Shown here piece by piece: positions 44,967-61,134 of a stretch of DNA of 64,000 nt. Every line of letters starts with the position of its first letter. Within the stretch, counting starts at the first letter, position 1. A program made the position numbers and the translations under genes. Origin of the DNA: Candidatus Binatia bacterium (lineage in GTDB: Bacteria; Desulfobacterota; Binatia; Bin18). The notes beneath the pieces are model-generated. The model was not told the origin of the DNA. It did not search any database and worked only from the letters and a program-made list of their open reading frames with translations. Where the stretch lies: the NCBI GenBank assembly GCA_963666315.2, contig CAXXHG010000007.1:1-64000 (forward strand), given 5' to 3'.

Positions 44967-44997
44967 TAGTTTTCATTCGGATGTGTTCAGTCGCTTT

Positions 44998-46323: not shown

Positions 46324-46508
46324 TCTTCACCCTTCTCCTCATTAGAAACTCGCTCATTATGCCTTAAAGTCATCGCCCGACAAACTCTTTTGAAAATAGA
46401 CAGGGCATACATTGACTTTTAGCTGGACAAGTGGCGAATCCGTTTGACACTGCTGCTAAAATGTCATAGTAGTTCGCAAGCCATCCAGATCCAATTATCG
46501 TTTTATAG

Positions 46509-46865
46509 GTGTTAATGACACTCAAAGCACGATCAACAACATGGCTGACTTTCTCACGATTCGTATGTGTGTCGATCTGCCTTTGTGTCTTCGCCGTCCT
46601 ATCAGCTCCTCAGCTTGCAGTGCTGACATACGCAGCGCCGGCTGAGGCGGAACCTCCCAGACACGAGGGCTCAGAGAGCTCTAAGGAAGAATCGGTGGTT
46701 CACGTTGCGGCGCGTCGCAACGTGAACCACCGATTCGGCAGTCATCTCAGTCGGTCTTATGATACCTGCGACCTGCTCCGCCAAGTCGCGTCGTACGCCG
46801 GTCATTTCCCAGCGATCGTTGGCCATCAGCTTCCCAAGGGCTTCCACGCGCCTTTGCTGATTTAA
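46509..46865 (+). CDS. Small exported His-rich hypothetical protein, possible leader ORF
   Basis: Hydrophobic N-terminal segment, low-complexity acidic linker, C-terminus GHQLPKGFHAPLLI; first ORF before sulP. Confidence 0.55.
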   Translation: MLMTLKARSTTWLTFSRFVCVSICLCVFAVLSAPQLAVLTYAAPAEAEPPRHEGSESSKEESVVHVAARRNVNHRFGSHLSRSYDTCDLLRQVASYAGHFPAIVGHQLPKGFHAPLLI

Positions 46866-47025
46866 GCGTCGCGCACTCTCTGGGCGTCGTGTCTCTAGGG
46901 ATTCTTTGCAGAATTCTAATCAGAATATTGCGGCCGAACTAGCCAAGAAACTTGTGGCTGGACTGACTGTTACTTTCGTGGCGATCAGTCAGTTCGTGGT
47001 ACAGGATGGATGAGGGTCCACATCA

Positions 47026-48654
47026 ATGACTCAAGAAGCAAACCAGGTGCCGAGAGGGACACTCGAAGGACTTCGTGACGTTTGGAAGTTCGACATCCTT
47101 TCGGGTTTTCTTGTCTTTCTGATTGCGCTGCCCCTTTGTCTTGGAATCGCCCTGGCGTGCGGATACCCGGCTATTGCTGGTATCTTCACTGCGATTATAG
47201 GTGGAATGCTGGCGACCTTTTTCAGTAATTCAGAACTCACTATCAAGGGGCCGGCAGCGGGCCTTATTGTTATAGCGATTGGCTGTGTCACTGAATTTGG
47301 TTTTACCGGGGGGACGGATCCGGTTGCCGACATGCAAGCCTATCGACTCGCCCTTGGAGTCGGTGTAGCCGCCGGTATTCTTCAAATTCTCATTGGCGTG
47401 TTTCGAGCTGGGATCCTTGGCGAGTTCTTCCCTACTTCGGCAATTCACGGGTTGCTTGCCTCAATTGGCGTGATCATCATGGCTAAGCAATTCCCGGTTA
47501 CCTTGGGCTTGGGACCGGAAGGCGCGCCGTTGGAACTGCTTGCAAGGATCCCACAATTCATCATGGATATGAACCCCATTGTAGCGCTCATTGGGATCAT
47601 CAGCCTGGTCATTATGTTCGGCTGGGAACATATTAGGATTCCGCGTCTTCAGGTGATTCCTGCCCCTGTGGTGGTCCTTCTTATTGCCGTCCCGATCGGA
47701 TTATATTTCGATCTTGGTCAAGAGCACACCTATTCGTTCGGCGGCCGCGAGTATCCTCTTGGAGGAAAATTTCTCGTCAATGTCCCCGACAATATAGTCA
47801 GCGCCATCGCATTTCCAGACTTTTCTGGCGTGGCCACTACCACAGGGCTGAAGTACATATTGATGTTTGCGTTGATTGGGAGTTTGGAATCTCTGCTGAG
47901 TGCGAAAGCAATCGACGAGATTGATCCATGGCGCAGAAAAACCAACCAGGACCGTGATCTGTTTGCCGTCGGGGTGGGGAATACCGTCTCCGCTCTCGTT
48001 GGTGGGTTGCCAATGATCTCGGAAATCGTGCGGAGCAAAGCCAATATCGATAACGGGGCGAGGACGCGATTCGCCAACGTGTTCCATGGGCTCTTTTTGC
48101 TCATCTTTGTCGCGCTCTTGCCGGGATTGATCAATCAAATTCCACTTGCTGCATTGGGCGCGATGTTGGTCCGCGTTGGTTTTCGTTTAGCGGCACCGCA
48201 AGAATTTCTCCATATGTACAAAGTCGGGCGCGAACAGTTGGTCATCTTTGTCTCAACGATTATCGGTGTCTTGGCAACGGATTTGCTCAGCGGGATTGCC
48301 ATTGGCATAGGCGTCAAGGCAGCCTTCCACATTTTTAATGGCGCGCCCTGGATTTCTCTTTTTCGACTAAGAGTCAACGTCGAGCGGGGAGAGAATGACG
48401 GGGTAACGGTTGCCGTGAAAGACTCTGCAATATTCAGCACGTGGATCGGATTAAAGAAAAGATTGGAGCACTTGAAGGGGGAGCCCAAGGTGGTTCTCGA
48501 CTTATCGGAGACCTCCTTTGTTGACCACACCGTGATGGAACGGCTGAAGGAGATGCAAAATGAATTCAAGGAGAATGACTCTATATTGATCATAACCGGA
48601 TTAGACCAACACCGAAAGCTCTCGGATTATCCCACTGCCGCCCGGAAAATGTAA
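47026..48654 (+). CDS. SulP/SLC26 anion (probably bicarbonate) transporter with STAS-like C-terminus
   Basis: SG..VFLIALPLCLGIALA, GPAAGL, LESLLSA.A.D, GGLPMISEIVRS.AN, DHT.ME. Confidence 0.9.
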   Translation: MTQEANQVPRGTLEGLRDVWKFDILSGFLVFLIALPLCLGIALACGYPAIAGIFTAIIGGMLATFFSNSELTIKGPAAGLIVIAIGCVTEFGFTGGTDPVADMQAYRLALGVGVAAGILQILIGVFRAGILGEFFPTSAIHGLLASIGVIIMAKQFPVTLGLGPEGAPLELLARIPQFIMDMNPIVALIGIISLVIMFGWEHIRIPRLQVIPAPVVVLLIAVPIGLYFDLGQEHTYSFGGREYPLGGKFLVNVPDNIVSAIAFPDFSGVATTTGLKYILMFALIGSLESLLSAKAIDEIDPWRRKTNQDRDLFAVGVGNTVSALVGGLPMISEIVRSKANIDNGARTRFANVFHGLFLLIFVALLPGLINQIPLAALGAMLVRVGFRLAAPQEFLHMYKVGREQLVIFVSTIIGVLATDLLSGIAIGIGVKAAFHIFNGAPWISLFRLRVNVERGENDGVTVAVKDSAIFSTWIGLKKRLEHLKGEPKVVLDLSETSFVDHTVMERLKEMQNEFKENDSILIITGLDQHRKLSDYPTAARKM

Positions 48655-48662
48655 GGAAGGTC

Positions 48663-51659
48663 TTGACACAAGTAATAGAGTCGGAACGGATTTCATTTGA
48701 ACCGACTTCAAAGCGGTTTCGATCGCTTTCCTCGGGAGAGCGAGGGCGAGTGCGCGATGCGGTCGCTGAGGCGTGTAAGCCGATTGCCCAGTCATGGCCG
48801 ATGAAGACGTTTGCTTATCGCAATCCTCTTCGCGGCTGGGAACACTTGCCGTTTGACGAGGCCATTCGCGAAGCCAAATATCTGCTGGGAGGAAACGGTT
48901 ACATCCCGAACGACGACTACCGTCAACTGTATCGGGAAGGACGTGTTACGGAGGATGCCGTCAAGCAGGCTCTGCAGGTGGTCGCCTCAAGCGTCGGTGT
49001 GCAGACTGTCACCGTAGGCCATCGTCAAGTCGTGACATCGGAAGTGTTGCGCCTGCATCTTGTGTTCGGATTCGATTCGCTGGACCCGACCCTGTTAACC
49101 TGGCAGTTTGGCGGCGGATGCGCAACAGAGCAGTTTCGAGATGATCTGCCGCCGGAGTCTAGGAAGCCACAAAACGGCGACGCGTCTTATTTGTCGAAAC
49201 TGTGGAAGAGCACGTTATCCGCGCTCGGCCTTTCTGTTGGGACCGACGATCCGCGGGCACAGGTCAGCGAGGAAGGAACGAGTCCCAGCGTTGATTTGCC
49301 TTCCGGAAGAACGCTCAGTGATTGGCTGGGATTACTGGCCGGAGCTTCTTTGGTCGATGAGATCAACGATCAGATGATAAAGTGGACCGGAGCCTTTCTT
49401 GATGAAGGAATGGCCGATTGGGAGATGCCCGGCCGGAAGGCTGGGTTTTATCGCGCGTGGCGAACGCTCGCGGCAAGGGACTTTTCTGGACGTTTCCTTG
49501 GCATCAAACAGTTCGCGACGAAGGTCCGCGATTTGCCGGACTCACCGGAAGATGCAATCGCTCGCAGCCTCCAGGGGCTTGGGATTCCCGAACAGGGATG
49601 GGCGGATTACCTGTCACGCCAGTTAGCCCAGTTGCCGGGTTGGGCCGGATTCATTCGCTGGCTGGGCGAAAACCCTGGTTATGCTGCTCAAAAACAGCAT
49701 CCGATCGACCCGCTTCAATATCTGGCAGTTCGCCTCTTCTATGAAGTCGAACTCGTCGATACGTGCTGCCGCCAAGAGTGGGGTATTGACGGGACGCTGC
49801 CGGCCCTCGTCTCCTCTTGGGAGGGGCGCAGGGATGAGTACCAGAAGCTCGGAGGGCGTGATTCGCGTGCGACCGGCCGCTATGTTCAATCCGTGTGTGA
49901 CGATGCGTGGCGCCTCTTTCATCTGGCGCAGTTTCTGCAACTGTCTCCCGACGATGTGGACACGCTTTCCCCCGCCGATGCGCGGACTCTGCTGTCTTGG
50001 TTGGACGCACTTCCCAGCGATGAGCACGGTCGGGTGTGGTTAGATGCGCTGGAGTCGAGCTATCGCAAGCAACTGATCGAGCGGCTCGCCAACCATAATG
50101 CCGAGCCAGGCACCAATGAAGACCGGACCGAAAACCGTCCGCGGGCCCAGCTTGTCTTGTGTATCGACGTGCGCTCGGAGTCGTTCCGCCGTCACATTGA
50201 GGCCCAAGGGCTCTATGTGACATTCGGCTATGCGGGCTTCTTCGGCATTCCCATCAGCTTTCAAGCGTTCGACAGCTCGGCACGGGCCGCTTTGTGTCCG
50301 GTCATCGTGCCGCCGGGGTTCAACGTCGATGAGGTTCCGCGTGGCGGCGAAGAAGGGCCACTCAACCATTACGCGGTGGGATCGAGGTGGAACCAACTCG
50401 GCGAGCACCTGTTTCATGCCTTAAAGAGCAATCCAGTCTCGTCGTTGATGTTGATAGACGTGCTGGGCCTGTTTTTTAGCGCGCGGCTGTTCGGAAAAAC
50501 GTTTTTGCGCATGCCGTACGAAGCGATCAAGGCGCGTGTACATGACTGGTTTATTGGTTCGGTGGCGACCCAGATCCCCGTCGATCGCACGGAAGATGGA
50601 CAAGACGGACACGCTGAACCGCCCGCCGGACCGCCGCACGGTTTCACACCAGAGGAACAGGCGACGTTTGTTGAAAAAGGACTGCGGGCGATTGGACTGA
50701 CACGGAACTTCGGCCGGTTCATCGTGCTGTGCGGCCACGGTAGCACGTCAGACAATAATCCCTTTTTCGCCGCGTATAACTGCGGCGCGTGTGGCGGCGG
50801 TCATGGCGATCCGAATGCGCGGGTGTTCGCGGCGATGGGGAATCGGGGGCACGTCCGGCGCGCTCTTAAAGAGCATGGACTGGATATTCCGGACGACACA
50901 CGGTTCCTTGCCGCCAAACATAACACAGCGACCGACCGAGTCTCGTTTTATGACGTACAAGATGTGCCGACGAGCCACGCCGACGACCTCCGTCGGCTCA
51001 CCGAGGACTTGGAAGAGGCCGGCCGCCATCAGGCGCTCGAACGATGCCATCGCATACCGCAAGCGCCCACGGACATTTCGCCGCAAGCCGCCACGGACCA
51101 CATGCTGTCGCGTACGGTCGACTGGACGAATGTTCGGCCCGAATGGGGCTTGTCCAGCAACGCTGCTTTCATTCTAGGACGCCGTTCGCTCACCAAAGAC
51201 CTTGATTTGGGTGGGCGGGTCTTTCTGCACTCCTACGATCCGGACGCTGATACTGAGGGGGCTATCCTCGAAGCGCTCATGAATGCACCAGTGGTCGTTG
51301 CGCAGTGGATTAGCATGGAATACTACTTCTCGGCCGTTGATCCGGTCGTCTACGGAAGCGGCAGCAAAGTGACGCACAATGTGGTCGTTGGTGTCGGTGT
51401 GATGCACGGCAGCCACGGTGACTTACAATCGGGCTTGCCGTTGCAGAGCGTCAACAACGGCCCGCGGCACTATCACGAACCGGTCCGTCTGTTGGTCATC
51501 GTCGATGCACCCAGGAGCCGTATTGCCGCTGTCATCGCCAAGCACACTCAGTTACAACACTTGTTCCAAAACCAATGGATCGGCCTGGTGGCGATGGATC
51601 CGGTGACTCGAGATTTTCACCGATTTCGCCCAGACGCGACGTGGGAGGTGTGCCAGTGA
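48663..51659 (+). CDS. dabA: DUF2309 / DabA (MpsB) inorganic carbon pump subunit, beta-carbonic-anhydrase-like
   Basis: WP...F...NPL.G, LPGWAG, CIDVRSE, GYAGFFG, CGHGS...NNP, CGACGG, HNTATD, RPEWGL, R.FLHSYD, GSGSK..HN, HEPVRL. Confidence 0.93.
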   Translation: MTQVIESERISFEPTSKRFRSLSSGERGRVRDAVAEACKPIAQSWPMKTFAYRNPLRGWEHLPFDEAIREAKYLLGGNGYIPNDDYRQLYREGRVTEDAVKQALQVVASSVGVQTVTVGHRQVVTSEVLRLHLVFGFDSLDPTLLTWQFGGGCATEQFRDDLPPESRKPQNGDASYLSKLWKSTLSALGLSVGTDDPRAQVSEEGTSPSVDLPSGRTLSDWLGLLAGASLVDEINDQMIKWTGAFLDEGMADWEMPGRKAGFYRAWRTLAARDFSGRFLGIKQFATKVRDLPDSPEDAIARSLQGLGIPEQGWADYLSRQLAQLPGWAGFIRWLGENPGYAAQKQHPIDPLQYLAVRLFYEVELVDTCCRQEWGIDGTLPALVSSWEGRRDEYQKLGGRDSRATGRYVQSVCDDAWRLFHLAQFLQLSPDDVDTLSPADARTLLSWLDALPSDEHGRVWLDALESSYRKQLIERLANHNAEPGTNEDRTENRPRAQLVLCIDVRSESFRRHIEAQGLYVTFGYAGFFGIPISFQAFDSSARAALCPVIVPPGFNVDEVPRGGEEGPLNHYAVGSRWNQLGEHLFHALKSNPVSSLMLIDVLGLFFSARLFGKTFLRMPYEAIKARVHDWFIGSVATQIPVDRTEDGQDGHAEPPAGPPHGFTPEEQATFVEKGLRAIGLTRNFGRFIVLCGHGSTSDNNPFFAAYNCGACGGGHGDPNARVFAAMGNRGHVRRALKEHGLDIPDDTRFLAAKHNTATDRVSFYDVQDVPTSHADDLRRLTEDLEEAGRHQALERCHRIPQAPTDISPQAATDHMLSRTVDWTNVRPEWGLSSNAAFILGRRSLTKDLDLGGRVFLHSYDPDADTEGAILEALMNAPVVVAQWISMEYYFSAVDPVVYGSGSKVTHNVVVGVGVMHGSHGDLQSGLPLQSVNNGPRHYHEPVRLLVIVDAPRSRIAAVIAKHTQLQHLFQNQWIGLVAMDPVTRDFHRFRPDATWEVCQ

Positions 51660-52144
51660 AATCGAGCCGCAACTCTACGCTGACGATCAAGACCTGTACC
51701 TTTTTCCTCATCTGGCTGCTCTTGTCTGAGAGCTTTGCCGGACTGCATGTAGTATTGGGGGTCGTCGTGGCCTTCGGTGTCGCCTGGTTGAACACCGACC
51801 GCTCCTCAACTTGCTCGTCTATCCGCGGCTGGCGCATGTTGTGGTACTTCCCCTGGTTGGTGGGCCGCATTCTGCAGAGTGGTTGCCATCTTTCTATGCT
51901 CATTCTGAATCCGGCTCTCCCCATCGACCCGAAGATGATTCGTCACCGGACCGAGTTGCAAGACGACGATCACATTGTGCTGCTCGGCAATTCCATCACG
52001 TTGACACCTGGCACGATCACCGTCGAGGTCGATTCTCAGGATTTGGTCATCCACGCCATGGACGACAGTTCCGCCGCCGACGTTACGAGCCGGCGAATCG
52101 AGCAGCGGATTGACAGCGTATTTATCGCGAGAGGTACAAAATGA
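51656..52144 (+). CDS. mrpE: Mrp/Mnh antiporter subunit E
   Basis: LGNSITLTPGTITV, L.IHA; GTG overlaps the dabA stop. Confidence 0.9.
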   Translation: MKSSRNSTLTIKTCTFFLIWLLLSESFAGLHVVLGVVVAFGVAWLNTDRSSTCSSIRGWRMLWYFPWLVGRILQSGCHLSMLILNPALPIDPKMIRHRTELQDDDHIVLLGNSITLTPGTITVEVDSQDLVIHAMDDSSAADVTSRRIEQRIDSVFIARGTK

Positions 52145-52410
52145 ACGCTTTTTTCCTGTTCGTGCTGATGACCATCACCCTTCTGATTGCCATCTACTTA
52201 TACCGCGTTCTTCGTGGACCGACGGTGTTTGACCGGGTGTTGGGTCTGAACGGAATCTCGACCAAGGCGATCATCCTGCTGGTCGTGATCGGCACCTTCT
52301 ACGAACGCGTCGACATGTTTGTGGATATTTCAACCGGCTATGCTTTGTTGAACTTGGTTGGCTCGCTAGCCATCGTCAAGTATCTGGAAGAACGGAAGGA
52401 GATCTTTTAA
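52141..52410 (+). CDS. mrpF: Mrp/Mnh antiporter subunit F
   Basis: YR...GPTVFDRV, DI...YALLN..G.LA..KY. Confidence 0.9.
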   Translation: MNAFFLFVLMTITLLIAIYLYRVLRGPTVFDRVLGLNGISTKAIILLVVIGTFYERVDMFVDISTGYALLNLVGSLAIVKYLEERKEIF

Positions 52411-52748
52411 TGTCTCTGAATAAACTATCTGAAGCAGCACAATGGGTCATCACGCCGGTGTCGATCGGCTTGATTCTGGTTGGCTTGTTCTTTCTGTTCG
52501 TGGCGGCAATCGGAGTACTGCGCTTTCCGGACGTCTATACGCGGTCGCACGCCGTCTCGCTGACCGATTCATTGGGTGCGTTTTTTCTGCTGGGCGGATT
52601 GGCACTGTATGAAGGTTTGAGTACCAACCTGGTCAAGATCCTGGTCGTACTCGTCCTGTTGTACTTGCTGAATCCGGTTATCACCCACGCCACGGTTCGA
52701 TCGGCGTATCGTTGCGGCCTTCAACCTTGGAGCAAAGACGACGCATGA
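52410..52748 (+). CDS. mrpG: Mrp/Mnh antiporter subunit G
   Basis: G.LRFPDVYTR.HA....D.LG, NPV..HA. Confidence 0.92.
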   Translation: MSLNKLSEAAQWVITPVSIGLILVGLFFLFVAAIGVLRFPDVYTRSHAVSLTDSLGAFFLLGGLALYEGLSTNLVKILVVLVLLYLLNPVITHATVRSAYRCGLQPWSKDDA

Positions 52749-53275
52749 TCTATTCGATCGAGATCCCGCTCTTGATTCTGCTGCTTATGACCGCTGCAGG
52801 TGCGATCATTGTAAAGGACTTGATCAGCTCGGTTTTTATTTTGGGGACATATAGCTTTCTGCTCGCCCTTGTGTGGGCGTGGCTGGGGGCGGTGGATGTG
52901 GCTTTTGTTGAAGCCGTGGTGGGAGCTGGTTTGGCGACGGTGTTCTTTTTATTGACGCTTTTCGGAACGGCGCCGAAAGACATACGCATTCGGCGATCCG
53001 CACCGCCGCTAACTGCCTTTGTCGGGCTGCCTGTGCTCGGACTGTTGTTGTTATACGCGGCGGAAGATCTTCCTAAATTCGCGGACCCGCATTCGCCGGC
53101 CAGCCTCCATGTGTCCCCTGCGTACCTTACAAACAGCCTGAAAGAGATGGACACACCAAACGTCGTGACGGCGGTGCTGATGGATTATCGGGCGTTCGAC
53201 ACGCTGATTGAAACCGCAGTGATCTTTATCGCCGGCCTCGCCTGCGCTTTGCTGTTGCGGAGGAATCAAGAATGA
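52745..53275 (+). CDS. DUF4040 plus MnhB-like subunit (MbhD/E-like, equivalent to the MrpA C-terminus)
   Basis: AVDVAFVEAVVGAG, PNVVTAVL.DYRAFDTL.E. Confidence 0.88.
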   Translation: MIYSIEIPLLILLLMTAAGAIIVKDLISSVFILGTYSFLLALVWAWLGAVDVAFVEAVVGAGLATVFFLLTLFGTAPKDIRIRRSAPPLTAFVGLPVLGLLLLYAAEDLPKFADPHSPASLHVSPAYLTNSLKEMDTPNVVTAVLMDYRAFDTLIETAVIFIAGLACALLLRRNQE

Positions 53276-53721
53276 TCCACGCACACGACAGCATCATAGT
53301 CCGGACGACGAGCCGGATACTGATTCCGTTGATCCAGTTGTTTGGGCTGTACGTCCTGTTCTTTGGCCAATTGGGACCGGGTGGCGGGTTCGCCGGCGGA
53401 GTCATACTGGGCACGAGCCTCATTTTGGGGATCCTCGTATTTGGTCCGGATGCTCCCGTGTGTCGCTTGGCGAGCAAGGTCATTCATGGTGAGGGGGTTG
53501 GACTGATGATCTTTGTCGGCGTCGGAGGATTGTGCTTGATCGGAGGTGGCGAATTTTTGAACTACGGGAACCTGGACATCCCTTGGATCGATTCCGCCGC
53601 GCGGCGACGTTCCCTGGGTATTGTGTTGACCCAAATTGGGGTCGCCGTAGATATCGCCGTCACGGCAATCTCGATTGTTATAAGTTTGTCGCTCATTAAC
53701 AGCGAGGAATCTCATGATTGA
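53272..53721 (+). CDS. mrpB: Mrp/Mnh antiporter subunit B
   Basis: GPGGGFAGG, G..FL.Y. Confidence 0.88.
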   Translation: MIHAHDSIIVRTTSRILIPLIQLFGLYVLFFGQLGPGGGFAGGVILGTSLILGILVFGPDAPVCRLASKVIHGEGVGLMIFVGVGGLCLIGGGEFLNYGNLDIPWIDSAARRRSLGIVLTQIGVAVDIAVTAISIVISLSLINSEESHD

Positions 53722-54109
53722 GTTTATCGAAGCGGCCCTGCAAAGACCCAACTTCATCGCCTTTGTGGTGCTGTTTCTTTGGGGTCTTTTCATCATGAAC
53801 ACCCATCCAAACCTGGTGAAGAAACTGATCGGCATGTACATTGTCCAGACAAGCATCCTGCTTTTGATCGTCACAATTGGTGTCAAGCAGGAGGCAACCG
53901 TTCCCATCCTGCAGGGAAGCGACGCGGTGCTGTCCACAGCGGACCAGATGTCCCCGCCCAATTACACCAATCCCTTGCCACACGTTTTGACCTTAACGGC
54001 AATCGTGGTGCAAGTCGCGACCTTGGGCGTCTCGCTGGCTTTGGTCACCGCACTCTACCGGAAATACGGCAGCCTGGATGAAGACGAGATTCTGCAGAAG
54101 ATTGAATGA
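53714..54109 (+). CDS. mrpC: Mrp/Mnh antiporter subunit C
   Basis: NLVKK.IG, NPLPHVL.LTAIVV. Confidence 0.92.
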   Translation: MIEFIEAALQRPNFIAFVVLFLWGLFIMNTHPNLVKKLIGMYIVQTSILLLIVTIGVKQEATVPILQGSDAVLSTADQMSPPNYTNPLPHVLTLTAIVVQVATLGVSLALVTALYRKYGSLDEDEILQKIE

Positions 54110-55602
54110 GCGACCATCTTCCTGTGATCCTGTTTTTGCTGCCCTTTGCGACGGCCATCTGCCTGCCGATGGTTGGTGCGAGACGGTCCGCTTGGTGTCG
54201 TCCAATGGCGTTGACGGCCTTGCTTGCCATGTGCGTCGTGGCAGTGATCAATGTTTGGATCGTTGTCGAGCATGGGGATACGCGGTACGCATTTGGCGGC
54301 TGGCCCATCAGTACAAGTCTGCCAGATCACCCGCTTGGCATCGAATGGGTCAACGATGGTTTGGCGAGTGCGATGCTCGTCGTGCTCAGCTTCCTGGCCT
54401 GGTTGTGTTTGTTCTATAGCGGACCTCTCACGCCACGGTCACTGGGTGCGCGCGAGGTCCTGTACTACGCCTTGCTGCTGCTCTTGATTTCTGGTTTGAC
54501 CGGGATTGTGCTGGCTGGGGATATCTTTAATGTCTTCGTGTTTCTGGAAGTTGCGGCACTGTCTGCCTATGGGCTGGTCGGGATTCCCGGCGGTCGAGCG
54601 CTGATTGTTGCGTTTCGATATCTCATCCTGGGAACGCTCGGTGCTTCGTTTTACCTGCTGGGGGTCGTTTTCTTTTATGCATCAACAGGCACCTTGAATA
54701 TGGCGGATCTCGCGCAGCAAATGGCCGCCAAGCCGGAATTGATGGCCTCGAAAGCGGTCATCGGCGGGACCACGTTTATGCTCATCGGTCTCGGAATCAA
54801 GATGGCGCTGTTTCCACTTCATGGTTGGCTACCCGGCGCCTATACCCGCGCTCCAGACTCGATTTCGCCGCTGCTCGCTTCCCTGATGACAAAAGTTGCC
54901 CTGTATGGATGGGTCCGCATCATGTTTTGGGTGCTTGGCGCTCGTGCGGAAATTGGGCAAGTCCACTTGCTGACATTACTAAGCGGACTGGGTTCCCTGG
55001 CGGCCGTGGCTGGTGCCCTGTTGGCATTACGCCAACAGGACGTGAAGCGGATGTTTGCGTATGGCGGCATTTCCCACGTCGGCTTGATCCTGATTGGAGT
55101 GAGTCAGGGGAACCAAACCGGCTTTGCGGGGAGCATGTTCTACCTGATCAACGACGCCGTCATGCAAGCTGGACTGTTCTTCATCGCAGGGGCGGCAATT
55201 CACCAGTATGGAGCGCGAACGGTGGAAGACCTGTCGCGTTTGCGGCGATCACCCTGGATGATCGGTGCGATCATTGTATTGGCAATGTCCATGATTGGCA
55301 TTCCACCAACCGGCGGGTTCTTTGGGAAATGGTACATTATCCTGGGTGCCATCGAAGCGGGCAACTATCTGGCTGTTGCAGCCGTCGTTGTCGCTACGTT
55401 GTTGACGATGGCGTATTTTCAACGCGTGTTCGTCCGCATTTTTGACGACACTCAAGAGTCGTCAACCACGGACGATGCTGACATGCATCCGGCCCTGAAA
55501 CTGAGTATGGGACTGACCGCGGGAGCGGTCATTGCCTTGGGGTTCTGGAGCGACCCCATAATCAGGTTTTTCCGGGAAGTGGCTGCAACCGCTGGCCTGT
55601 GA
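54106..55602 (+). CDS. mrpD: Mrp/Mnh antiporter subunit D
   Basis: GDIFN.FVFLEV, TGTLNMADL, IKMALFPLHGWLP.AY, TKV, GIPP..GFFGKW. Confidence 0.92.
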   Translation: MSDHLPVILFLLPFATAICLPMVGARRSAWCRPMALTALLAMCVVAVINVWIVVEHGDTRYAFGGWPISTSLPDHPLGIEWVNDGLASAMLVVLSFLAWLCLFYSGPLTPRSLGAREVLYYALLLLLISGLTGIVLAGDIFNVFVFLEVAALSAYGLVGIPGGRALIVAFRYLILGTLGASFYLLGVVFFYASTGTLNMADLAQQMAAKPELMASKAVIGGTTFMLIGLGIKMALFPLHGWLPGAYTRAPDSISPLLASLMTKVALYGWVRIMFWVLGARAEIGQVHLLTLLSGLGSLAAVAGALLALRQQDVKRMFAYGGISHVGLILIGVSQGNQTGFAGSMFYLINDAVMQAGLFFIAGAAIHQYGARTVEDLSRLRRSPWMIGAIIVLAMSMIGIPPTGGFFGKWYIILGAIEAGNYLAVAAVVVATLLTMAYFQRVFVRIFDDTQESSTTDDADMHPALKLSMGLTAGAVIALGFWSDPIIRFFREVAATAGL

Positions 55603-55641
55603 CAAATTTTTATATCGAATTATATTAATGGAACAATTTTA

Positions 55642-57861
55642 ATGTCGGTTGTGTATGTCCTGATACCCCTTTTACCCTTGCTTGCCAGCATCATTATCGC
55701 GTTCGCCGGGCGGCGCTTGGGGCAAGACAGTGGTAAGCTCGGTGTGCTCGCGATCGGCATCTCATTTGCTTTGTCGGTCGCAGCCTTCGTTCAGGTCGTC
55801 CTCCAAAGTGACCCAATTGTCATCAGTCTGTACGAACTGCTTCGGTCTGGAAATCTGAGTGTCGAACTGGGCTTGTATGTTGACCAACTTGCTGTATTGC
55901 TGCTGCTGTTAGTGACCGGCGTGAGCCTTGTGGTTCACGTGTACTCCTCCCGCTACATGATCGGGGACGCGCGCTACAGCCGGTTCTTCGCTGTGATGGC
56001 CCTGTTTACTTTTGGCATGCTGACGCTAGTCATGAGTAGCAACCTGCTCATGATGTTCATGTGCTGGGAAGTCATGGGCATCTGCTCCTATCTGCTGATC
56101 TCCCACCAATCCGATCGAAAGGCGGCTTGCAACGCGGCGACAAAGGCCTTTCTCGTCAACGCCGTGGCCGACATTGGTCTGTTGTTCGGCATCATTCTGA
56201 CCTTTGCCACGTTCGAGACGCTGGATGTCCGGCAGATCCTCAGTCAGTCCGCGAGCGTCAGCGGACAGACCATCAACCTGCTGGCATGGGTTGGCTTTGA
56301 ATGGCACGTTCGTACGGTCACGTTGATCACGCTCTTGCTGTTTATGGGATGCTTGGGTAAATCGGCTCAGGTTCCATTCCATGTGTGGTTGCCTAACGCA
56401 ATGGAGGCCCCAACCCCCGTCTCGGCACTGATTCACGCTGCCACGATGGTCAATGCCGGGCCTTATTTGTTGGTTCGATTCAGCGACTTGGTACTACTGT
56501 CGCCTGCGGCGATGATGGTGATCGCCATTATCGGTGCAACGACCGCGCTGTTCGCCGCGATGGTCGCTCTGACGCAGAGCGATATCAAGAAGATCCTCGC
56601 CTATTCCACGATCAGCCAAATCGGTTTCATGATCATGACATGTGGCCTGGGGGCGTTTATGGTGGCTATCTTTCATATGTTGGCTCACGGATTCTTGAAG
56701 GGCTTCCTGTTTTTATCGACAGGCAACGAGCTCGCATCAGCCGGCTCGCACGCACACCACGTACCCACACGACCGAAACTGTTGTCGCCGGTATCCCTCG
56801 GGGCGTTGATCCTGGCCTGTGCTCCGCCCGCGCTGATCTTCTCGGGTCCATATGGGGCACTGTGGACGGTCCACAATTCGAGCGCCGCTCAGATCGCTTT
56901 CTGGGTGATCGGCTTGCTGACCGTCTTCTTCACGGCCATGTATCTTTTTCGCGGACTTACCTCGTTGTTTCAGCCAGCCACATCCGCGCTCGTTCAGCCG
57001 CGGTTCTTTTCCCCTTTGCATCTCGTGGCTATCATCGTCGGATCGCTCGGGTTGATCAGCACTTTGTTGGCGCTCTGGGTGTGGTTTGTACCGTTCCTGG
57101 CACCGGCAATAGCGACGCCATATCCACTCGTCGAGGGCTTCTGGCAGACGAGTCACGTGCCGTTGCTCGTATTGGCCCTGGTGGCGGCGCTGGCTGGCTG
57201 GGGCTTGGCGGCGCTGCTTCAGGCAAGACCCATGCTGTCCGCCGTTCCTCGCTTGCACTTCGCACAAACGATGTACGTGCTGTTTCTCAACAAATTCTAT
57301 TTCGATGAGGCGTATAGCCTGTACATCGTTCAGCCCATGGTCCGAATGGTCAAGTGGCTGTGGCGTGAGATCGACGTTGGCGTCATCAACGGTCTGATCC
57401 ATGGGATGGCTGCGAGGTTGGTTCGCTTTGGCCAGTGGCTGTGGGAGACAGTCGACGTTCGCGGTATTGATGACGTGGTTCGTCGTCTTGCAAGGAATAC
57501 TGTCCTTTTTGGCCGGTGGCTGTGGGAGACAGTCGACGTTCGCGGTATTGATGACGTGGTTCGTCGTCTTGCAAGGAATACTGTCCTTTTTGGCCGGTGG
57601 CTGTGGGAGACAGTCGACGTTCGCGGTATTGATCGCATGGTCGTCGAAGGTGGTCAACAGAGTGCGGGGCTATCCCAGTGGCTGTGGGAGGCAGTCGACG
57701 TTCGCCGAATCGAGAAAGGCGCGGACCAAGTAGATCGTGCAGCCGAAGCCAGCGGGAAGAAACTGAACGAAGTCGAACCACGGCCGATTCAAGACCACTT
57801 GGGTGTGTTGATCGCATGGTTAGTCGCGGTCATCCTGTTTTTCTATTGGCTCGTATTATAA
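55642..57861 (+). CDS. NuoL/DabB-like proton-translocating subunit with expanded lateral helix
   Basis: WEVMG, GKSAQVPFHVWLP.AMEAPTPVSALIHAATMVNAG, HGFLK..LFL, NKFYFDE; lacks GFFSKD. Confidence 0.9.
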   Translation: MSVVYVLIPLLPLLASIIIAFAGRRLGQDSGKLGVLAIGISFALSVAAFVQVVLQSDPIVISLYELLRSGNLSVELGLYVDQLAVLLLLLVTGVSLVVHVYSSRYMIGDARYSRFFAVMALFTFGMLTLVMSSNLLMMFMCWEVMGICSYLLISHQSDRKAACNAATKAFLVNAVADIGLLFGIILTFATFETLDVRQILSQSASVSGQTINLLAWVGFEWHVRTVTLITLLLFMGCLGKSAQVPFHVWLPNAMEAPTPVSALIHAATMVNAGPYLLVRFSDLVLLSPAAMMVIAIIGATTALFAAMVALTQSDIKKILAYSTISQIGFMIMTCGLGAFMVAIFHMLAHGFLKGFLFLSTGNELASAGSHAHHVPTRPKLLSPVSLGALILACAPPALIFSGPYGALWTVHNSSAAQIAFWVIGLLTVFFTAMYLFRGLTSLFQPATSALVQPRFFSPLHLVAIIVGSLGLISTLLALWVWFVPFLAPAIATPYPLVEGFWQTSHVPLLVLALVAALAGWGLAALLQARPMLSAVPRLHFAQTMYVLFLNKFYFDEAYSLYIVQPMVRMVKWLWREIDVGVINGLIHGMAARLVRFGQWLWETVDVRGIDDVVRRLARNTVLFGRWLWETVDVRGIDDVVRRLARNTVLFGRWLWETVDVRGIDRMVVEGGQQSAGLSQWLWEAVDVRRIEKGADQVDRAAEASGKKLNEVEPRPIQDHLGVLIAWLVAVILFFYWLVL
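57355..57759 (+). repeat. Five in-frame 81-bp (27-aa) tandem units in the L-like gene
   Basis: TGGCTGTGG unit starts at 57355, 57436, 57517, 57598, 57679; units 2 and 3 are identical, the others diverged. Confidence 0.95.
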
Positions 57862-57896
57862 CAATTTATAACAAGGCGCCCTGAAGAGTTGATGCT

Positions 57897-59387
57897 ATGA
57901 ATGAACACCTGCTGTCTTTGATTATTTCCGTTCCTTTTGTTGGCATTGTGGTCCTGGCATTCGCGCCAAGCGAGCCGTGGATGCGGCGAATTGCGCTTGG
58001 CTGCACGCTGCTGGCCTTCGGGCTCTTCCTGATTCTCTGGTCCGGGTTCGACCCCAATGAGCAGGGCATGCAGTTTGTGGAGCGTATGCAGTGGATGCCG
58101 ACATTCAACATTCAATATGCGGTTGGCGTAGATGGCATCAGCATCCTCTTGGTGTTGCTCACAACACTGCTGTCCCCTCTGTGCGTGTTGTGTTCGTGGA
58201 CTTCGATCACCTCGCACGTGCGGGCCTTCATGATGCTGATTCTCCTGGTCGAAGGCGCCATGCTGGTGGTTTTTACGGCCCTGGACCTGTTCCTGTTCTT
58301 TATGATGTGGGAAGTCACGATGATTCCTATGTACTTTATGATCATCCTCTGGGGCGGACCCGGACGGATTGCCGCGGGGTTGAAGTTCATCCTGTATAGT
58401 TTGACGGGAAGCCTACTGCTGCTCGTGGGGATTCTGGGACTTTACGTCCAAGGCGGACATACTTTTGACATGATTGCCCTGGCGGAGCAGACCTATTCTT
58501 CCACATCCCAGTTTTGGATGTTTCTAGCTTTCATGTTGGCCTTTGCCATCAAGCTTCCGATGTTTCCGTTTCACACCTGGCTGCCTGACGCCCACGCTGA
58601 GGCGCCCACGGCCGGCAGTGTCATTTTGGCCGGCGTGCTTTTGAAAATGGGCGGATATGGATTCTTGCGGATTTGTCTGCCGATCCTTCCCGATGCGTCA
58701 GCGAGCTTTGCTCCCTTTATGCTCTGGTTGTCGGTTGTGGCGATTCTGTACGGCGGGTTTATGGCCCTCGCCCAGGACGACATCAAAAAGCTTGTCGCCT
58801 ATTCGTCGATCTCTCACATGGGGTTCGTTACGCTGGGTATCTTCGTTTTCAATAGCCAGGGGATCCAAGGCGCGATTCTCCAAATGTTCAACCACGGGAT
58901 CGTCACCGGGGCGATGTTCCTTGCGGTCGGCGTGTTATACGACCGCACGCACAGCCGACTGATCGGGGACTACGGCGGGCTGCACAAACAGATGCCACGG
59001 TTTGTCGCCCTGTTTTGTGTTTTCTCGGTGGCATCTTTCGGGCTGCCGGGGACGTGCGGTTTTATTGGCGAGGTCCTGGTATTGCTTGGCACCTCAGAGG
59101 AGAGTTTCGTTCTGGTCTTACTCGCCATGGGAGGCATCGTACTGGCGGCGTCTTACATTCTATGGATGTTCCAACGAGTGGCGTTGGGACAGGCTGGCAC
59201 GCAAGTCGCCTCGCAGCTTTCTGACATCACCGTCCGTGAAACGGTAACTCTCGCGCCGCTCGCCCTGGTGGTGTTTGCTGTCGGCGTCTATCCACGCCCA
59301 CTTATGGAATTGATCGACGCCGGCGTCACCAAACTCGTGGAACTGACTCGTCAGGGACTGCCGCCCGAGATAACGGGCCTTTTCTAG
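57897..59387 (+). CDS. NuoM-like proton-translocating subunit
   Basis: GVDGIS, MWE...IPMY, IKLPMFPFHTWLPDAHAEAPTAGSVILAGVLLKMGGYG, FIGE. Confidence 0.93.
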   Translation: MNEHLLSLIISVPFVGIVVLAFAPSEPWMRRIALGCTLLAFGLFLILWSGFDPNEQGMQFVERMQWMPTFNIQYAVGVDGISILLVLLTTLLSPLCVLCSWTSITSHVRAFMMLILLVEGAMLVVFTALDLFLFFMMWEVTMIPMYFMIILWGGPGRIAAGLKFILYSLTGSLLLLVGILGLYVQGGHTFDMIALAEQTYSSTSQFWMFLAFMLAFAIKLPMFPFHTWLPDAHAEAPTAGSVILAGVLLKMGGYGFLRICLPILPDASASFAPFMLWLSVVAILYGGFMALAQDDIKKLVAYSSISHMGFVTLGIFVFNSQGIQGAILQMFNHGIVTGAMFLAVGVLYDRTHSRLIGDYGGLHKQMPRFVALFCVFSVASFGLPGTCGFIGEVLVLLGTSEESFVLVLLAMGGIVLAASYILWMFQRVALGQAGTQVASQLSDITVRETVTLAPLALVVFAVGVYPRPLMELIDAGVTKLVELTRQGLPPEITGLF

Positions 59388-59745
59388 TTGGCCAGCTCAC
59401 TCGTCAACAAAGACCAACTACACGGTGAAGCCATGCAGCGGAGAGATTGGGAGCGGCTGTGTGAACTGAACGCGGTCCAACAGGTTAACGAGGATCTTTC
59501 ATATCCTGTCTGAATGGGCCCCCTGAATCCGCCCAGAGCAGGAGTGCGAGAGAATCTGTCAAGTGTCACGCGTAAATCACATGCCTGTCAGTTCCCCCGC
59601 AACATTGTGTTCTATGTCCTTGCTGCCAGGCGGCTTGACATGGTCTGATTAGCCGCTCTTCTGCGTGAATCTCAACAGCTATTAGCAAGGGTATGGGTCA
59701 CTCTCCCCGCAGGCAGGTAAGACAGCGTTGAGATAAAACAGCCCT

Positions 59746-59774
59746 GTTACAAGACAATGGCAGTATTATGATGT
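59746..59774 (-). promoter_or_regulatory. Degenerate orphan Pho box array
   Basis: Minus strand ACATCAT-4-CTGCCAT-4-TTGTAAC, 11-bp period. Confidence 0.45.
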
Positions 59775-59949
59775 ATGTGAAAATCCCGGGCTGGATTTCT
59801 ATTCAAATCCGAGGATGCAGCCCGGTAGGGAGCTCTAGCCTGTTGCCTGAAGAGCCTCAGCGGCAGGAGGGAAGAAGGCTTGCTGCACGAGCAGTAACAG
59901 TTCCGCAACGGAAAAAATTTTGCTTAGTCAGTGCTAGACGGGAGGTGTT

Positions 59950-60235
59950 TGAGTTCCTGTTGCTGCTTTTGCGAAGCCAAGACACCGACAACAATGATTG
60001 GGACATCACGGATACGGGCATTTTGATGGGTACGGATCTATTCGAATATCTTCTAGCCGCTTTTGAGGGGCAGCCGTGGTTCGAGGGTCGCCAGGTCGGG
60101 CACAAATGATTCGATGAGCAAGCAGGCCTGTCCCCCGTCTCCGGCCGCTTTAAAACAATAGCCGGCTTGCTCAAAGTTGTAGGTGATCAGGCTGGCAATA
60201 CTTACCTCATTCTCCATCACAAGAATCTTCTTCAA
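59950..60235 (-). pseudogene. Degraded response-regulator receiver domain (PhoB-like)
   Basis: KKILVMENE...LITYNFEQAGY....DG.....PDL..L...LP..SG then in-frame stops; similarity continues (RDVPIIVV); acidic catalytic residues altered; left boundary approximate. Confidence 0.7.
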
Positions 60236-60306
60236 TGGTGCGATCCCTTCTAATGTGATCCAAAAACAAAAAGATCAATTCGAGACCGCCAAAAGATTTC
60301 ATTGAG

Positions 60307-60377
60307 GTGACGGGTCTATGAAGAAATTATGACCATGGCTTGTCGGCTGTTTCACAAGACCGTCATACTCTTTTCAT
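60307..60377. promoter_or_regulatory. Back-to-back Pho-box-like arrays
   Basis: Minus TGGTCAT-4-TCTTCAT-4-CCGTCAC (60307-60335) and plus GTTTCAC-4-CCGTCAT-4-TTTTCAT (60349-60377). Confidence 0.55.
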
Positions 60378-60689
60378 CTATGTGAAGGAGTCAAGGCATA
60401 TAGTTCCAAGAAAAATGTATAGAGGAGAATATGCGCAACAGGACCGTTTACCCTGCGGGCGGTGTTCTTGAGTCCTGAGTGGCATGAGCGTGTGCAACGT
60501 GTTGCTGGAGCCCGTGGTCCCCCACCCCATGAATTTATGCGTGAGGCCATTGAGCCTGAGATCGTCAGACGTGAGATCCTGATCGGCAAACAGAAGACCG
60601 GGAAAGCTAAAGAATCGCTGCCGATCATTCTTCACTAAAGAAGTTGAAGGCTCCACTAGCATAGCCTGGACAACAACTCTTTCCTTCCT

Positions 60690-61052
60690 TCACCTGAGGC
60701 TCGACGAGGTGTACGCACATTTCGCACCTCGAACAGTAGAGGGCGGTTCATTGAAAATGACTTCTTGAACAAGCCCTGCAAGGTTTTCACGAGTTGCGGG
60801 GAGGCTTTCTTTCCCGCAACTCGTCAGTTCACAATAACGTCTAATCCGGCCACGGATGATCGTGGCCGGACTTCTCAATAATGTTGCCTGCTCTAACGAG
60901 TGGAGCAGAGGATACAGGCTGCCTGGGCTAATACGGTAGCCCAACCGGTCAAGGGTTTTGCTGAGCAGTCCACCATATGTCTCGCCCGGGCCCGCTTTGT
61001 AAAGGACGAATACCTTGACCATGCCCGAGTGTAGATATACAGCACGACCCAC
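60690..61052 (-). CDS. PadR family transcriptional regulator (possibly degenerating)
   Basis: VL......TYG..L...L...GY.ISPGSLYPLLH.LE...LL......GR.RRY..LT..G. Confidence 0.8.
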   Translation of the reverse strand: MGRAVYLHSGMVKVFVLYKAGPGETYGGLLSKTLDRLGYRISPGSLYPLLHSLEQATLLRSPATIIRGRIRRYCELTSCGKESLPATRENLAGLVQEVIFNEPPSTVRGAKCAYTSSSLR

Positions 61053-61080
61053 ATTTTGATGAAGGAAAAATCAATTCTGT

Positions 61081-61098
61081 GTGACAGTTGTGTTACGG
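61081..61098 (-). promoter_or_regulatory. Pho-box-like pair upstream of padR
   Basis: Minus strand CCGTAAC-4-CTGTCAC. Confidence 0.45.
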
Positions 61099-61134
61099 AG
61101 AGCTTGTATGATGGGAAGGAAACGCCCATCAGTG

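Follow-up and report, generated by a model that had tools for sequence, protein, structure and literature searches.

Gene Content and Junctions of the Locus

The operon, from a marine bacterium, occupies positions 47026–59387 of the analysed window (the whole stretch of 64,000 nucleotides), and all its genes lie co-oriented on the + strand. It begins with sulP (47026..48654), encoding a SulP-family anion transporter (PF00916, E 5e-57), and dabA (48663..51659), whose 998-aa carbonic-anhydrase-like product matches PF10070 (E 1e-263, profile positions 1–747). Six genes for small subunits follow: mrpE (51656..52144; MrpE/MbhA-like, GTG start, PF01899), mrpF (52141..52410; MrpF/MbhB-like, PF04066), mrpG (52410..52748; MrpG/MbhC-like, PF03334), B' (52745..53275; MbhD and MbhE in one ORF, PF13244 and PF20501), mnhB (53272..53721; MnhB/MbhF-like, PF04039), and mrpC (53714..54109; MrpC/NuoK-like, PF00420). 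The last three genes encode antiporter-like subunits: mrpD (54106..55602; MrpD/MbhH type, PF00361), L (55642..57861; NuoL type, 739 aa, PF00662 and PF00361), and M (57897..59387; NuoM type, PF00361).

The ORFs and Pfam matches agree with the operon sulP-dabA-mrpE-F-G-B'-B-C-D-L-M proposed in the sequence-only reading, and the overlapping stop and start codons reported there from dabA through mrpD are the ones read here: GTGA at dabA/mrpE; ATGA at E/F, G/B', B'/B, and C/D; TAATG at F/G; and an 8-nt overlap at B/C. Gaps separate sulP from dabA (8 nt), D from L (39 nt), and L from M (35 nt). Upstream of sulP, on the same strand, lies an ORF of 118 aa (46509..46865) whose N-terminal part includes a hydrophobic segment and whose C-terminal motif is conserved; it has no Pfam match and no assigned function. 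By tblastn it is found at the same upstream position in eight related loci (33–91% identity), and it is a possible member of the operon.

Consistent with the earlier statement that hydrogenase, quinone, and Fe-S subunits are missing, the Pfam scan of ORFs in 43459–63272, which covers the operon and its flanks, detects neither hydrogenase nor NuoB/C/D/H/I-like, Fe-S, or MbhI-like genes. The operon likewise contains no NuoH, NuoA, or NuoJ and neither a quinone nor an NADH module; an ordinary complex I operon is located 40 kb away, at the window start.

Contigs from two public runs, X1 and X2, cover 47026–57464 unbroken, from sulP into L. They end inside an 81-bp tandem repeat in L (57427–57633, 2.6 copies, 99% identity), and because they break there, they do not confirm the repeat copy number. 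Runs holding operon sequence are labelled seawater or marine; they are not independent of the source sample.

Conservation and Co-occurrence

Forty loci with this DabA type were found, in records of Planctomycetota and Nitrospirota. In 32 of them the genes after dabA match those of the operon in kind and order, with all nine downstream genes at 20 loci and one to eight of the nine, up to the contig end, at 12 more; orthologs of mrpE align from residue 1, directly after dabA. Among 301 Nitrospirota genomes, 17 carry full-length DabA of the operon type (54–60% identity), and all 17 have the operon type of MrpD; conversely, this MrpD (50–66% identity) occurs in 18 genomes, each with the operon type of DabA (one of these as a partial match). 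The trees of DabA, L, and M, built by quick searches with few outgroups, each divide into a Nitrospira clade and a Planctomycetota-like clade.

In broken clusters, the disruption is always located between dabA and mrpE, and L and M remain with E–D. In one genome (G525) dabA is isolated, lacking any PF00361 gene within 8 kb, and the set E-F-G-B'-B-C-D-L-M is found together 260 kb away; in three others, dabA and mrpE are separated by an insert of 4–9 kb. At no locus compared is mrpD parted from L. The dabA–mrpE spacing in Nitrospira is 409–573 nt at 15 of 18 loci and reaches kilobases or 260 kb in some genomes; therefore, dabA and mrpE do not always form one transcript.

At the level of gene order and co-occurrence, the comparison confirms that dabA and the nine-gene set form a conserved unit rather than a chance juxtaposition. 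The sequence-only reading had named lack of conservation elsewhere as grounds for its own refutation, which the 32 loci contradict, and its suggestion of Nitrospira-like clusters is borne out by the Nitrospirota genomes.

DabA

The operon dabA is the sole DabA gene of the genome. Its product contains the motifs CIDVRSE, GHGS, and CGACGG with the zinc ligands C500, D502, H692, and C707, a Cys/Asp/His/Cys set like that of beta-carbonic anhydrases, and a hydrophobic finger helix at approximately residues 590–614. It aligns with the solved DabA2 (9rd0_A, 388 bits) over both the zinc-ligand stretches and the finger segment, and the ligand motifs, recognised already from the sequence as CxD, H, and C, are intact in 29 of 29 orthologs.

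Subunits L and M and the DabA–L Model

L scores 273 bits against complex I NuoL (8qby_L) versus 124 bits against DabB2. Its tree, a quick one with few outgroups and only two complex I NuoL sequences, both from this genome, places L in a DabA-linked clade (support 98), together with canonical DabB and the L of a DabA-NuoM-NuoL operon, and separates it from the complex I NuoL that the genome also encodes. Similar to DabB, L lacks the TM12 Lys-Asp that NuoL and MrpA retain, a pattern matched in 23 of 24 orthologs; it keeps TM5 Glu, TM7 Lys, and TM11 His/His/Lys. Its C-terminal part carries a lateral helix and the terminal transmembrane helix. Judged by these sequence features, L is a NuoL-like subunit equivalent to DabB.

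The translated lateral-helix region (aa 572–707; 57355..57762, +) comprises five tandem 27-residue units, two of them identical. Orthologs have three, four, or five such units, and this variation among close relatives argues against a strict ruler. The E–D set contains one antiporter-like subunit, without a lateral helix, and the lateral and terminal transmembrane helices are supplied by L only. The AlphaFold model of L is of poor quality (mean pLDDT 56.5).

M is similar to complex I NuoM (8qby_M, 431 bits), and its TM5 Glu, TM7 Lys, TM8 Lys, and TM12 Glu are intact in 19 of 19 orthologs; the M tree gives it no clear place among NuoM proteins.

The complex of DabA residues 490–998 with L residues 1–480 was modelled with ipSAE of 0.63, 0.66, and 0.63, the best of three controls scoring 0.00; 58 of 80 solved complexes reach the mark that it passes, as do 2 of 110 mismatched pairs. 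The runs share at least 90% of contacts, the partner pLDDT is 75–76, and the contact is formed by DabA 575–614 on L 341–365. This result may stem from resemblance to the DAB structures solved in 2026, and the Mrp part lies outside the model. The initial proposal had DabA taking the place of the redox module. With L grouping with DabB and the model docking DabA on L, the evidence instead puts DabA on the NuoL-type subunit, in a predicted arrangement more like that of CupA on NdhF3 in NDH-1MS.

Small-Subunit Module and MrpD

Asp38 of MrpF in B. pseudofirmus is regarded as functionally important in the Mrp literature and lies on the proposed Na+ path. At this position the operon MrpF has Asn36, and its orthologs have Asn (22 of 31) or Ala (9 of 31), while both canonical MrpF proteins of the same genome retain Asp. 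Because the Asp38 equivalent is lost, Na+ coupling, proposed in the sequence-only reading, is not supported, and the small-subunit module may lack canonical Na+ transport.

B' aligns to MrpA 641–796 (7qru_A) and retains the equivalents of D771, D776, and E780, a motif present in 29 of 30 orthologs. The closest solved relative of MrpF is MbhB (6cfw_B), that of MnhB is MbhF (6cfw_F), and those of MrpD are MbhH (6cfw_H, 188 bits) and MrpD (7qru_D), in line with the Mbh/Mbs-like character first assigned to the small subunits. TM5 Glu and the Lys residues of TM7, TM8, and TM12 of MrpD are intact in 23–24 of 24 orthologs. From the conserved DabA ligands and the charges of M and D, all parts of the operon look functional.

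Inorganic-Carbon Context

At six related loci, sulP orthologs (82–98% identical) lie directly upstream of dabA, and by context SulP is a candidate bicarbonate transporter. Genes or fragments of beta-carbonic anhydrase adjoin the operon in six relatives; in the host genome, which is 92% complete, neither beta- nor alpha-carbonic anhydrase nor the RuBisCO large subunit was found. A genome of the same genus has a beta-carbonic anhydrase and lacks DabA. The host also carries two canonical Mrp operons (on contigs C30 and C47), of which the C30 one looks broken.

Proposed Machine and Alternative Explanations

The operon suggests that inorganic carbon is taken up by a larger, ion-driven machine of a kind not described before; the literature search found no description of a ten-gene DabA–Mrp machine. 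We consider it fairly probable that the products form one vectorial carbonic anhydrase of an expanded DAB type, with about ten subunits and driven by an ion gradient; its physical assembly, direction of ion flow, stoichiometry, substrate, and activity are what we infer. E-F-G-B'-B-C-D-L-M would make up a membrane arm of the Mrp/Mbh kind, in which three subunits are antiporter-like, namely, D of the Mrp/Mbh type, M of the complex I NuoM type, and L as the NuoL-like equivalent of DabB. Cytoplasmic DabA would sit on L, and probably also on M, and its hydrophobic finger helix would press on TM11 of L in the way seen in DAB complexes of known structure. Inward flow of cations down their gradient through the arm, H+ being the likely cation for L, M, and D, would drive one-way hydration of CO2 to bicarbonate at the buried zinc site of DabA, and the neighbouring SulP would move bicarbonate as well. 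As the search of the host genome gave neither an alpha- or beta-carbonic anhydrase nor RuBisCO, the bicarbonate would here serve biosynthetic carboxylations; in Nitrospira the machine would feed autotrophy. Counting against a single machine, the DabA-NuoM-NuoL operon of genome G197, which has no Mrp genes, indicates that DabA, L, and M evidently can work without the small subunits.

A bolder version, which we hold only tentatively, treats these complexes as non-redox relatives of the respiratory complexes and as the third and largest class of carbonic anhydrases coupled to energy, with DabA on an Mrp/complex-I-type arm of three proton channels, moving several ions (possibly of two kinds) per CO2, and thus building up bicarbonate gradients beyond those of DAB1 or DAB2. 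The small DABs would in that case have arisen from such a machine by reduction, DabB corresponding to L minus the lateral helix and TM5 Glu, and DabC to a stump of M.

It seems unlikely that the locus encodes two machines in one regulon, DabA-L-M being a DAB-like CO2 trap and E–D an Mrp-type antiporter that recycles Na+ for a BicA-like SulP. Such a division would fit G197, where dabA-nuoM-nuoL occurs twice and no Mrp gene is present, and the available text of Daebeler et al., 2020 (PMC7784846), which proposes Mrp–BicA cooperation for the Nitrospira locus. A promoter-like site in the 39-nt D–L gap would also fit, although the total of 11 sites versus 7.2 ± 2.9 in shuffles is no excess. However, a DabA-L-M unit should move jointly, whereas L and M stay joined to E–D even with dabA 260 kb off, and in the 301 genomes sampled the operon type of MrpD never occurs without the operon type of DabA. 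Moreover, E–D alone would be a set with one antiporter-like subunit and no lateral helix, seen among solved systems only inside MBH/MBS, where the lateral helix is supplied by MbhI, of which this locus has no counterpart.

Neither do we favour the explanation that the nine-gene unit is mainly a cation/proton antiporter for pH and salt homeostasis, with DabA as an accessory that acidifies the cytoplasm by converting CO2 and H2O to HCO3- and H+, or buffers it, and carbon supply as a by-product; we rate it as improbable. The carriers do include marine and haloalkaline-tolerant lineages, the Nitrospira locus is treated under pH and ion homeostasis in the accessible part of its description (PMC7784846), and M and D retain all proton-path residues. 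On the other hand, the genome already has its two canonical Mrp operons (allowing for the apparently broken one) and no other alpha- or beta-class carbonic anhydrase, the clustering of SulP and beta-carbonic anhydrase genes with the operon in relatives points to inorganic carbon, and the Asp of the putative Na+ path is gone from the operon-type MrpF.

We found no point in favour of an assembly chimera or of a DAB gene and an Mrp operon having come together by chance; both are refuted by the gene order kept at 32 of 40 loci, the contigs of runs X1 and X2 spanning sulP to L, and the strict co-occurrence.

Returning to the single expanded DAB-type machine, the conserved gene unit, the Mbh/Mbs-like arm, and the DabA ligands of the sequence-only reading are retained in it, while DabA at the redox site and the view of all DABs as two-subunit systems are given up, and Na+ coupling is left as a mere possibility.

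Significance

No simpler means of energising CO2 capture is known than DAB pumps, whose structures became available only in 2026. If the proposal is true, DabA on a full multi-channel antiporter arm would show how the long-range charge relay of complex I and Mrp can be linked to a chemical reaction that is not electron transfer. The systems would offer a mechanistic test bed, with the same DabA chemistry on one, two, or three active channels, and the operon bears on the origin of DabB and DabC. In soils, oceans, and wastewater plants, nitrite is oxidised mainly by Nitrospira; they carry this operon type, so far read there as an ordinary Mrp antiporter. A machine working as proposed would be a candidate high-gear inorganic-carbon pump for engineering.

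Comparison With Known Systems

The two-gene DAB2/MpsAB (Halothiobacillus neapolitanus, PDB 9rd0; 10.64898/2026.03.13.711513), as far as its available description goes, shares with the operon the DabA family (with the 388-bit match, ligands, and finger already noted) and a NuoL-like PF00361 partner without the TM12 Lys-Asp. For the operon, our model predicts the finger helix in this partner. DAB2 differs in having two genes versus ten here, the nine membrane genes co-occurring strictly with the operon type of DabA. Canonical DabB has Gln at TM5 and ends just after the first turn of the lateral helix, whereas L has TM5 Glu and continues through a long lateral helix to a last transmembrane segment. 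The original statement that characterised DABs consist of DabA plus one NuoL-like subunit holds for DAB2/MpsAB; it does not hold for DAB1 of Thermocrinis albus, described in the accessible text as a DabA-DabB-DabC heterotrimer with DabC, approximately half a NuoM with hydrophobic residues at the would-be proton path, in the NuoM position (10.64898/2026.05.01.722082). The operon resembles DAB1 in having a third membrane subunit in this position beside the NuoL-like one; however, M is of the full NuoM type with four charged residues, and D and six small subunits are added.

The nearest relatives are the DabA-NuoM-NuoL operons (as in G197), with DabA sister to the Mrp-linked DabA (support 100) and L in the clade with support 98. 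They lack E, F, G, B', B, C, and D, and have the order M-L versus L-M here. In the available text of the COGNAT paper they constitute clade C, and SulP and NuoM were noted there in 2017 as ybcC neighbours (PMC5700660).

With Mrp antiporters (CPA3; PDB 7qru, 6z16, 7d3u), including group 3 Mrp clusters as far as covered by the accessible text (PMC5703873), the operon shares the equivalents of MrpA D771, D776, and E780, and the Lys/Glu pair and further Lys of MrpD. Unlike them, it has separate NuoL-type and NuoM-type genes instead of the MrpA N-terminal domain, its module has lost the MrpF Asp38 equivalent, and it is strictly linked to DabA. The Nitrospira locus was classed as a group 3 Mrp with extra NuoL/M by Daebeler et al., 2020 (PMC7784846), the available part of which contains no mention of DabA that we found.

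MBH/MBS of Pyrococcus (PDB 6cfw, 6u8y) have the same gene order, E-F-G-D/E-B-C-D corresponding to MbhA–H, and carry a catalytic module on an Mrp-like arm, as predicted for the operon machine. The operon differs from them in the absence of hydrogenase, the NuoB/D/H/I-like module, and MbhI, and in a catalytic partner that is a non-redox carbonic anhydrase, predicted on the distal L. Complex I/NDH-1 has in common the NuoL-type and NuoM-type subunits; its NuoH, NuoA, NuoJ, quinone, and NADH modules have no counterpart in the operon.

Cyanobacterial NDH-1MS (CupA on NdhF3/NdhD3; PDB 6tjv) is powered by electron transfer, whereas the operon encodes no redox module, and CupA is unrelated to DabA. It is probably the closest working analogy: in NDH-1MS a vectorial CO2-hydrating protein sits on homologs of NuoL and NuoM, at the distal tip of a complex-I-like arm. 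Among the matches of L and M are 6tjv_F and 6tjv_D.

Gene content and layout of the operon

ORF calling in the window fills the interval 47026–59387 (+) with eleven ORFs, all in the same orientation. Their Pfam matches are, in order, SulP; DabA (PF10070, E 1e-263, covering the entire profile); MnhE, MrpF, and MnhG; MbhD and MbhE, both in a single ORF (B'); MnhB; the NuoK-like MrpC; and PF00361 in three proteins of 498, 739, and 496 residues, i.e., the mrpD product (D), the NuoL-type subunit (L), and the NuoM-type subunit (M). The overlapping stop/start codons that the sequence-only reading had described from dabA through mrpD are confirmed by the sequence (GTGA, ATGA, TAATG, ATGA, ATGA, an 8-nt overlap, and ATGA); sulP is separated from dabA by 8 nt, mrpD from the L gene by 39 nt, and the L gene from the M gene by 35 nt. 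All three zinc-ligand motifs ascribed to DabA in that reading are present, and the protein aligns with the solved DabA2 (9rd0_A) at 388 bits. Equally, the Pfam scan bears out the statement that no redox subunit is encoded within or beside the cluster.

The whole genome contains one DabA gene and three MnhE genes, hence two more Mrp operons, on contigs C30 and C47. The canonical Mrp operon of C30 (~46700–52200) appears to be disrupted: its matches to MrpA and MrpD fall in ORFs of just 182 and 369 aa. Window positions 1–6990 (-), 40 kb from the DabA cluster, hold the last genes of a complex I operon: nuoD, nuoH, nuoL, and a nuoM truncated at the start of the contig.

Neither promoter nor terminator scans yielded more sites than shuffled sequences (11 vs. 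7.2 ± 2.9 and 19 vs. 16.9 ± 3.8, respectively), and an Rfam search produced no hit better than chance either upstream of sulP/dabA in the window or near dabA in the Nitrospira locus L023. Among the sequencing runs listed as containing the sequence, none is of RNA. An ORF of 118 aa at 46509–46865 (+), without a family match, has a hydrophobic N-terminal segment and, at its C-terminus, a motif that is strongly conserved; it is present at the equivalent upstream position in eight related loci. Also upstream, a gene at 40040–42340 (-) fuses a PF00528 ABC-type permease domain to a WD40-like beta-propeller region; it adjoins a second permease gene and two phosphate-selective porin genes (43459–46323).

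Conservation of gene order

The DabA–Mrp cluster is real and conserved. The search with the window DabA returned 40 loci, and scoring these by tblastn with the window proteins, the synteny survey proposed in the sequence-only reading, upheld the gene order: 20 of the 40 loci have all nine downstream genes in colinear order, and 12 more have one to eight of the nine, in order, until the contig ends. Three loci, from Manganitrophaceae, have ample flanks and carry the classical dabB–dabA–PII set instead; five are not judgeable. By name, the carriers belong to Planctomycetota/Pirellulales and Nitrospirota; there are also two near-identical relatives of the window.

In the DabA tree, all Mrp-linked DabA proteins form one clade (100*), which is sister to DabA of the DabA–NuoM–NuoL type and stands apart from canonical DabA. 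The trees of DabA, L, and M all split in the same way, with Nitrospira on one branch and Planctomycetota-like sequences on the other.

Co-occurrence was assessed in 301 evenly drawn Nitrospirota genomes. Full-length DabA of the operon type is found in 17 (54–60% identity), with partial matches in seven more, and operon-type MrpD in 18 (50–66% identity), exactly those 17 plus one of the partial-DabA cases; one other genome has an MrpD of a different kind (42% identity). Four Nitrospirota genomes (G704, G476, G570, and G633) have the N-terminal half only of operon-type DabA (query ~20–479/515), with one in-frame TGA and at 8–9 kb from a canonical DabA; operon-type MrpD is absent from these four at E ≤ 1e-100.

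Interrupted clusters are broken between dabA and mrpE. The spacer between these two genes is 409–573 nt long in 15 of 18 Nitrospira loci, and in three genomes (G672, G676, and G680) it holds an insertion of 4–9 kb, with a canonical dabB–dabA pair in two of them. In genome G525, dabA is isolated, the 8 kb around it containing no PF00361 gene, and mrpE through M lie together 260 kb away. Since the breaks always fall between dabA and mrpE, L and M travel with the Mrp-like genes and not with DabA, which makes it improbable that DabA, L, and M form one machine and the small Mrp subunits a separate one.

In L052 and L053 (the loci of G676 and G680), the inserted dabB–dabA pair lies on the opposite strand, so that each island contains two kinds of DAB. 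The Nitrospira loci also share a recurrent U-rich motif of 16–21 nt, situated ~160–180 nt upstream of dabA and ~40–60 nt upstream of mrpE, where it follows a hairpin-like stretch (e.g., L023 9740–9760 and 13316–13331). The motif matches no Rfam family and was not found in the window; possibly it is a regulatory or terminator-like element that the two genes share.

Antiporter-like subunits

D is of the Mrp/Mbh type, its top solved relatives being MbhH (6cfw_H, 188 bits) and MrpD (7qru_D), and its four charged residues are kept in 23–24 of 24 orthologs. M belongs to the NuoM type of complex I (8qby_M, 431 bits); it shares 52% identity with the complex I NuoM encoded at the window start, and all four of its key charges are kept in 19 of 19 orthologs. 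As the closer relative of M, the M tree favours neither complex I NuoM nor the DAB-linked M of G197, a genome from the host's phylum.

L scores highest with complex I NuoL (273 bits), followed by MrpA (142 bits) and DabB2 (124 bits). In a quick-search tree with few outgroups, rooted on MrpA, it is placed apart from the genome's own two NuoL proteins, in a clade (SH-aLRT 98) that includes every DabA-linked L-type protein in the set, i.e., canonical DabB of four genomes, L of a DabA–NuoM–NuoL operon, and L of the operon type. The residue pattern agrees with this placement: the TM12 motif of NuoL and MrpA is Ser-Lys-Asp/Glu, and its Lys-Asp is absent from all DabA-linked proteins. In TM5 the operon L keeps Glu, whereas canonical DabB has Gln. 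It also keeps TM7 Lys and TM11 His/His/Lys, each in 24 of 24 orthologs.

In the assembled sequence, the lateral-helix region of L (aa 572–707, window 57355–57762) is a tandem array of five 27-residue units. Two units have the same protein sequence, matching a DNA repeat of 81 bp (2.6 copies); read-derived contigs break inside this repeat, and its copy number in L is therefore provisional. Complex I NuoL of this genome, on contig C7, has one such unit; L orthologs have three (Planctomycetota-like) or four or five (Nitrospira), and one L of G197 has three. A longer helix might span M, D, and the small subunits, although the number of units varies and the structure model is poor. The AlphaFold2 model of L (mean pLDDT 56.5, below 50 in the lateral-helix region) was set aside for length and shape.

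Module logic and DabA docking

Taken alone, the segment from mrpE to mrpD provides a single antiporter-like subunit and lacks a lateral helix. This combination is seen, among solved systems, only within MBH/MBS, where the helix comes from MbhI; an MbhI-like gene is absent from the operon. L is predicted to supply the lateral helix as well as the second NuoL-like channel. Together, L and B' amount to a split MrpA, with M as an addition.

Complex prediction for DabA 490–998 with L 1–480, each input as an ortholog alignment, gave ipSAE values of 0.63, 0.66, and 0.63, compared with 0.00 for the best of three controls; 58 of 80 solved complexes attain the ipSAE mark, compared with 2 of 110 mismatched pairs. 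Contacts agree between runs by at least 90%, and the partner pLDDT is 75–76. In the modelled interface, a hydrophobic finger of DabA (575–614) lies against L 341–365, that is, TM11 with its His/His/Lys, and residues adjoining the zinc His of DabA are also near L. This interface matches the descriptions of DAB2 (DabA2–DabB2) and of DAB1 (the DabA–DabB–DabC heterotrimer) in the accessible text of the respective papers. The model supports binding of DabA to L, and its high score may reflect likeness to the solved DAB structures. As all evidence links DabA with L, the reading in which DabA sits where MBH carries its redox module was rejected.

Coupling ion

Comparison with solved structures shows the small subunits to be Mbh-like, and the residues of B' corresponding to MrpA D771, D776, and E780 are conserved. 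Asp38 of MrpF is called conserved and functionally important in the accessible text of PMC9568556. At the equivalent site, the operon MrpF of the window has Asn; among 31 orthologs, Asn occurs in 22 and Ala in nine, whereas Asp is retained in the canonical MrpF proteins of this genome. Due to this replacement, the earlier suggestion of Na+ coupling is not endorsed.

Distribution and inorganic-carbon context

DabA occurs in 4 of 401 genomes sampled from the host's phylum, the other three not being of the operon type, and in 28 of 301 Planctomycetota genomes (E ≤ 1e-90), where the operon type is found only in the sample's centre genome. This difference in DabA frequency suggests that the host is not a planctomycete. 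The operon proteins of the window are 65–90% identical to those of Planctomycetota MAGs, but DnaX just 38–43%; DnaX of the window's genome shows 35–43% identity throughout to Nitrospira, two Pirellulales, and a same-phylum genome, too even a spread to place the host. We infer from these comparisons that the whole unit was probably transferred horizontally.

In G197 (G197:C4:509000–524000, loci L045/L046), there are two tandem copies of dabA–nuoM–nuoL and no Mrp genes; dabA of the second copy is divided between two frames, and the two L proteins differ in having one vs. three lateral-helix units.

A search of the window's genome (92% complete) for alpha- and beta-class carbonic anhydrases (CA) and the RuBisCO large subunit found none of them. 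In the single same-genus genome compared (G110), beta-CA is present and DabA absent. Two related loci have a full beta-CA gene two genes upstream of dabA, ahead of a SulP-like gene (L007 7710–8375 and L013 7722–8384), and in four others (L006, L010, L011, and L014) beta-CA fragments flank the operon; the window contains neither the gene nor a remnant. SulP is encoded immediately upstream of dabA in the window and close relatives. A role of the operon in bicarbonate supply in a heterotroph fits this context; MpsAB of staphylococci is described as bicarbonate supply in the accessible portion of the literature.

Comparison with known systems

Parts of this arrangement have been noted before. In the accessible text of the COGNAT study (PMC5700660, 2017), ybcC adjoins NuoL, with SulP and NuoM in one clade. 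The corresponding text of Daebeler et al. (PMC7784846, 2020) assigns the Nitrospira locus to the group 3 Mrp clusters, noting bicA and two additional NuoL/M-like genes, and does not name DabA. Two DAB structure papers (10.64898/2026.03.13.711513 and 10.64898/2026.05.01.722082) deal, in their accessible parts, with two- and three-subunit systems only. The literature search, in abstracts and text passages, found no paper linking DabA with Mrp small subunits, although COGNAT Fig. S1 and Daebeler Fig. S8 may show the genes; the DabA–Mrp architecture is apparently undescribed.

On balance, the operon is likely to encode a ten-subunit vectorial carbonic anhydrase driven by an ion gradient, for which assembly, ion, and stoichiometry are putative. 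Canonical DabB stops just past the motif that opens the lateral helix, whereas L continues with a long lateral helix and a final transmembrane helix. The DabB equivalent here is best read as still being the NuoL-like subunit of a complete, presumably assembled Mrp/complex-I-type arm.
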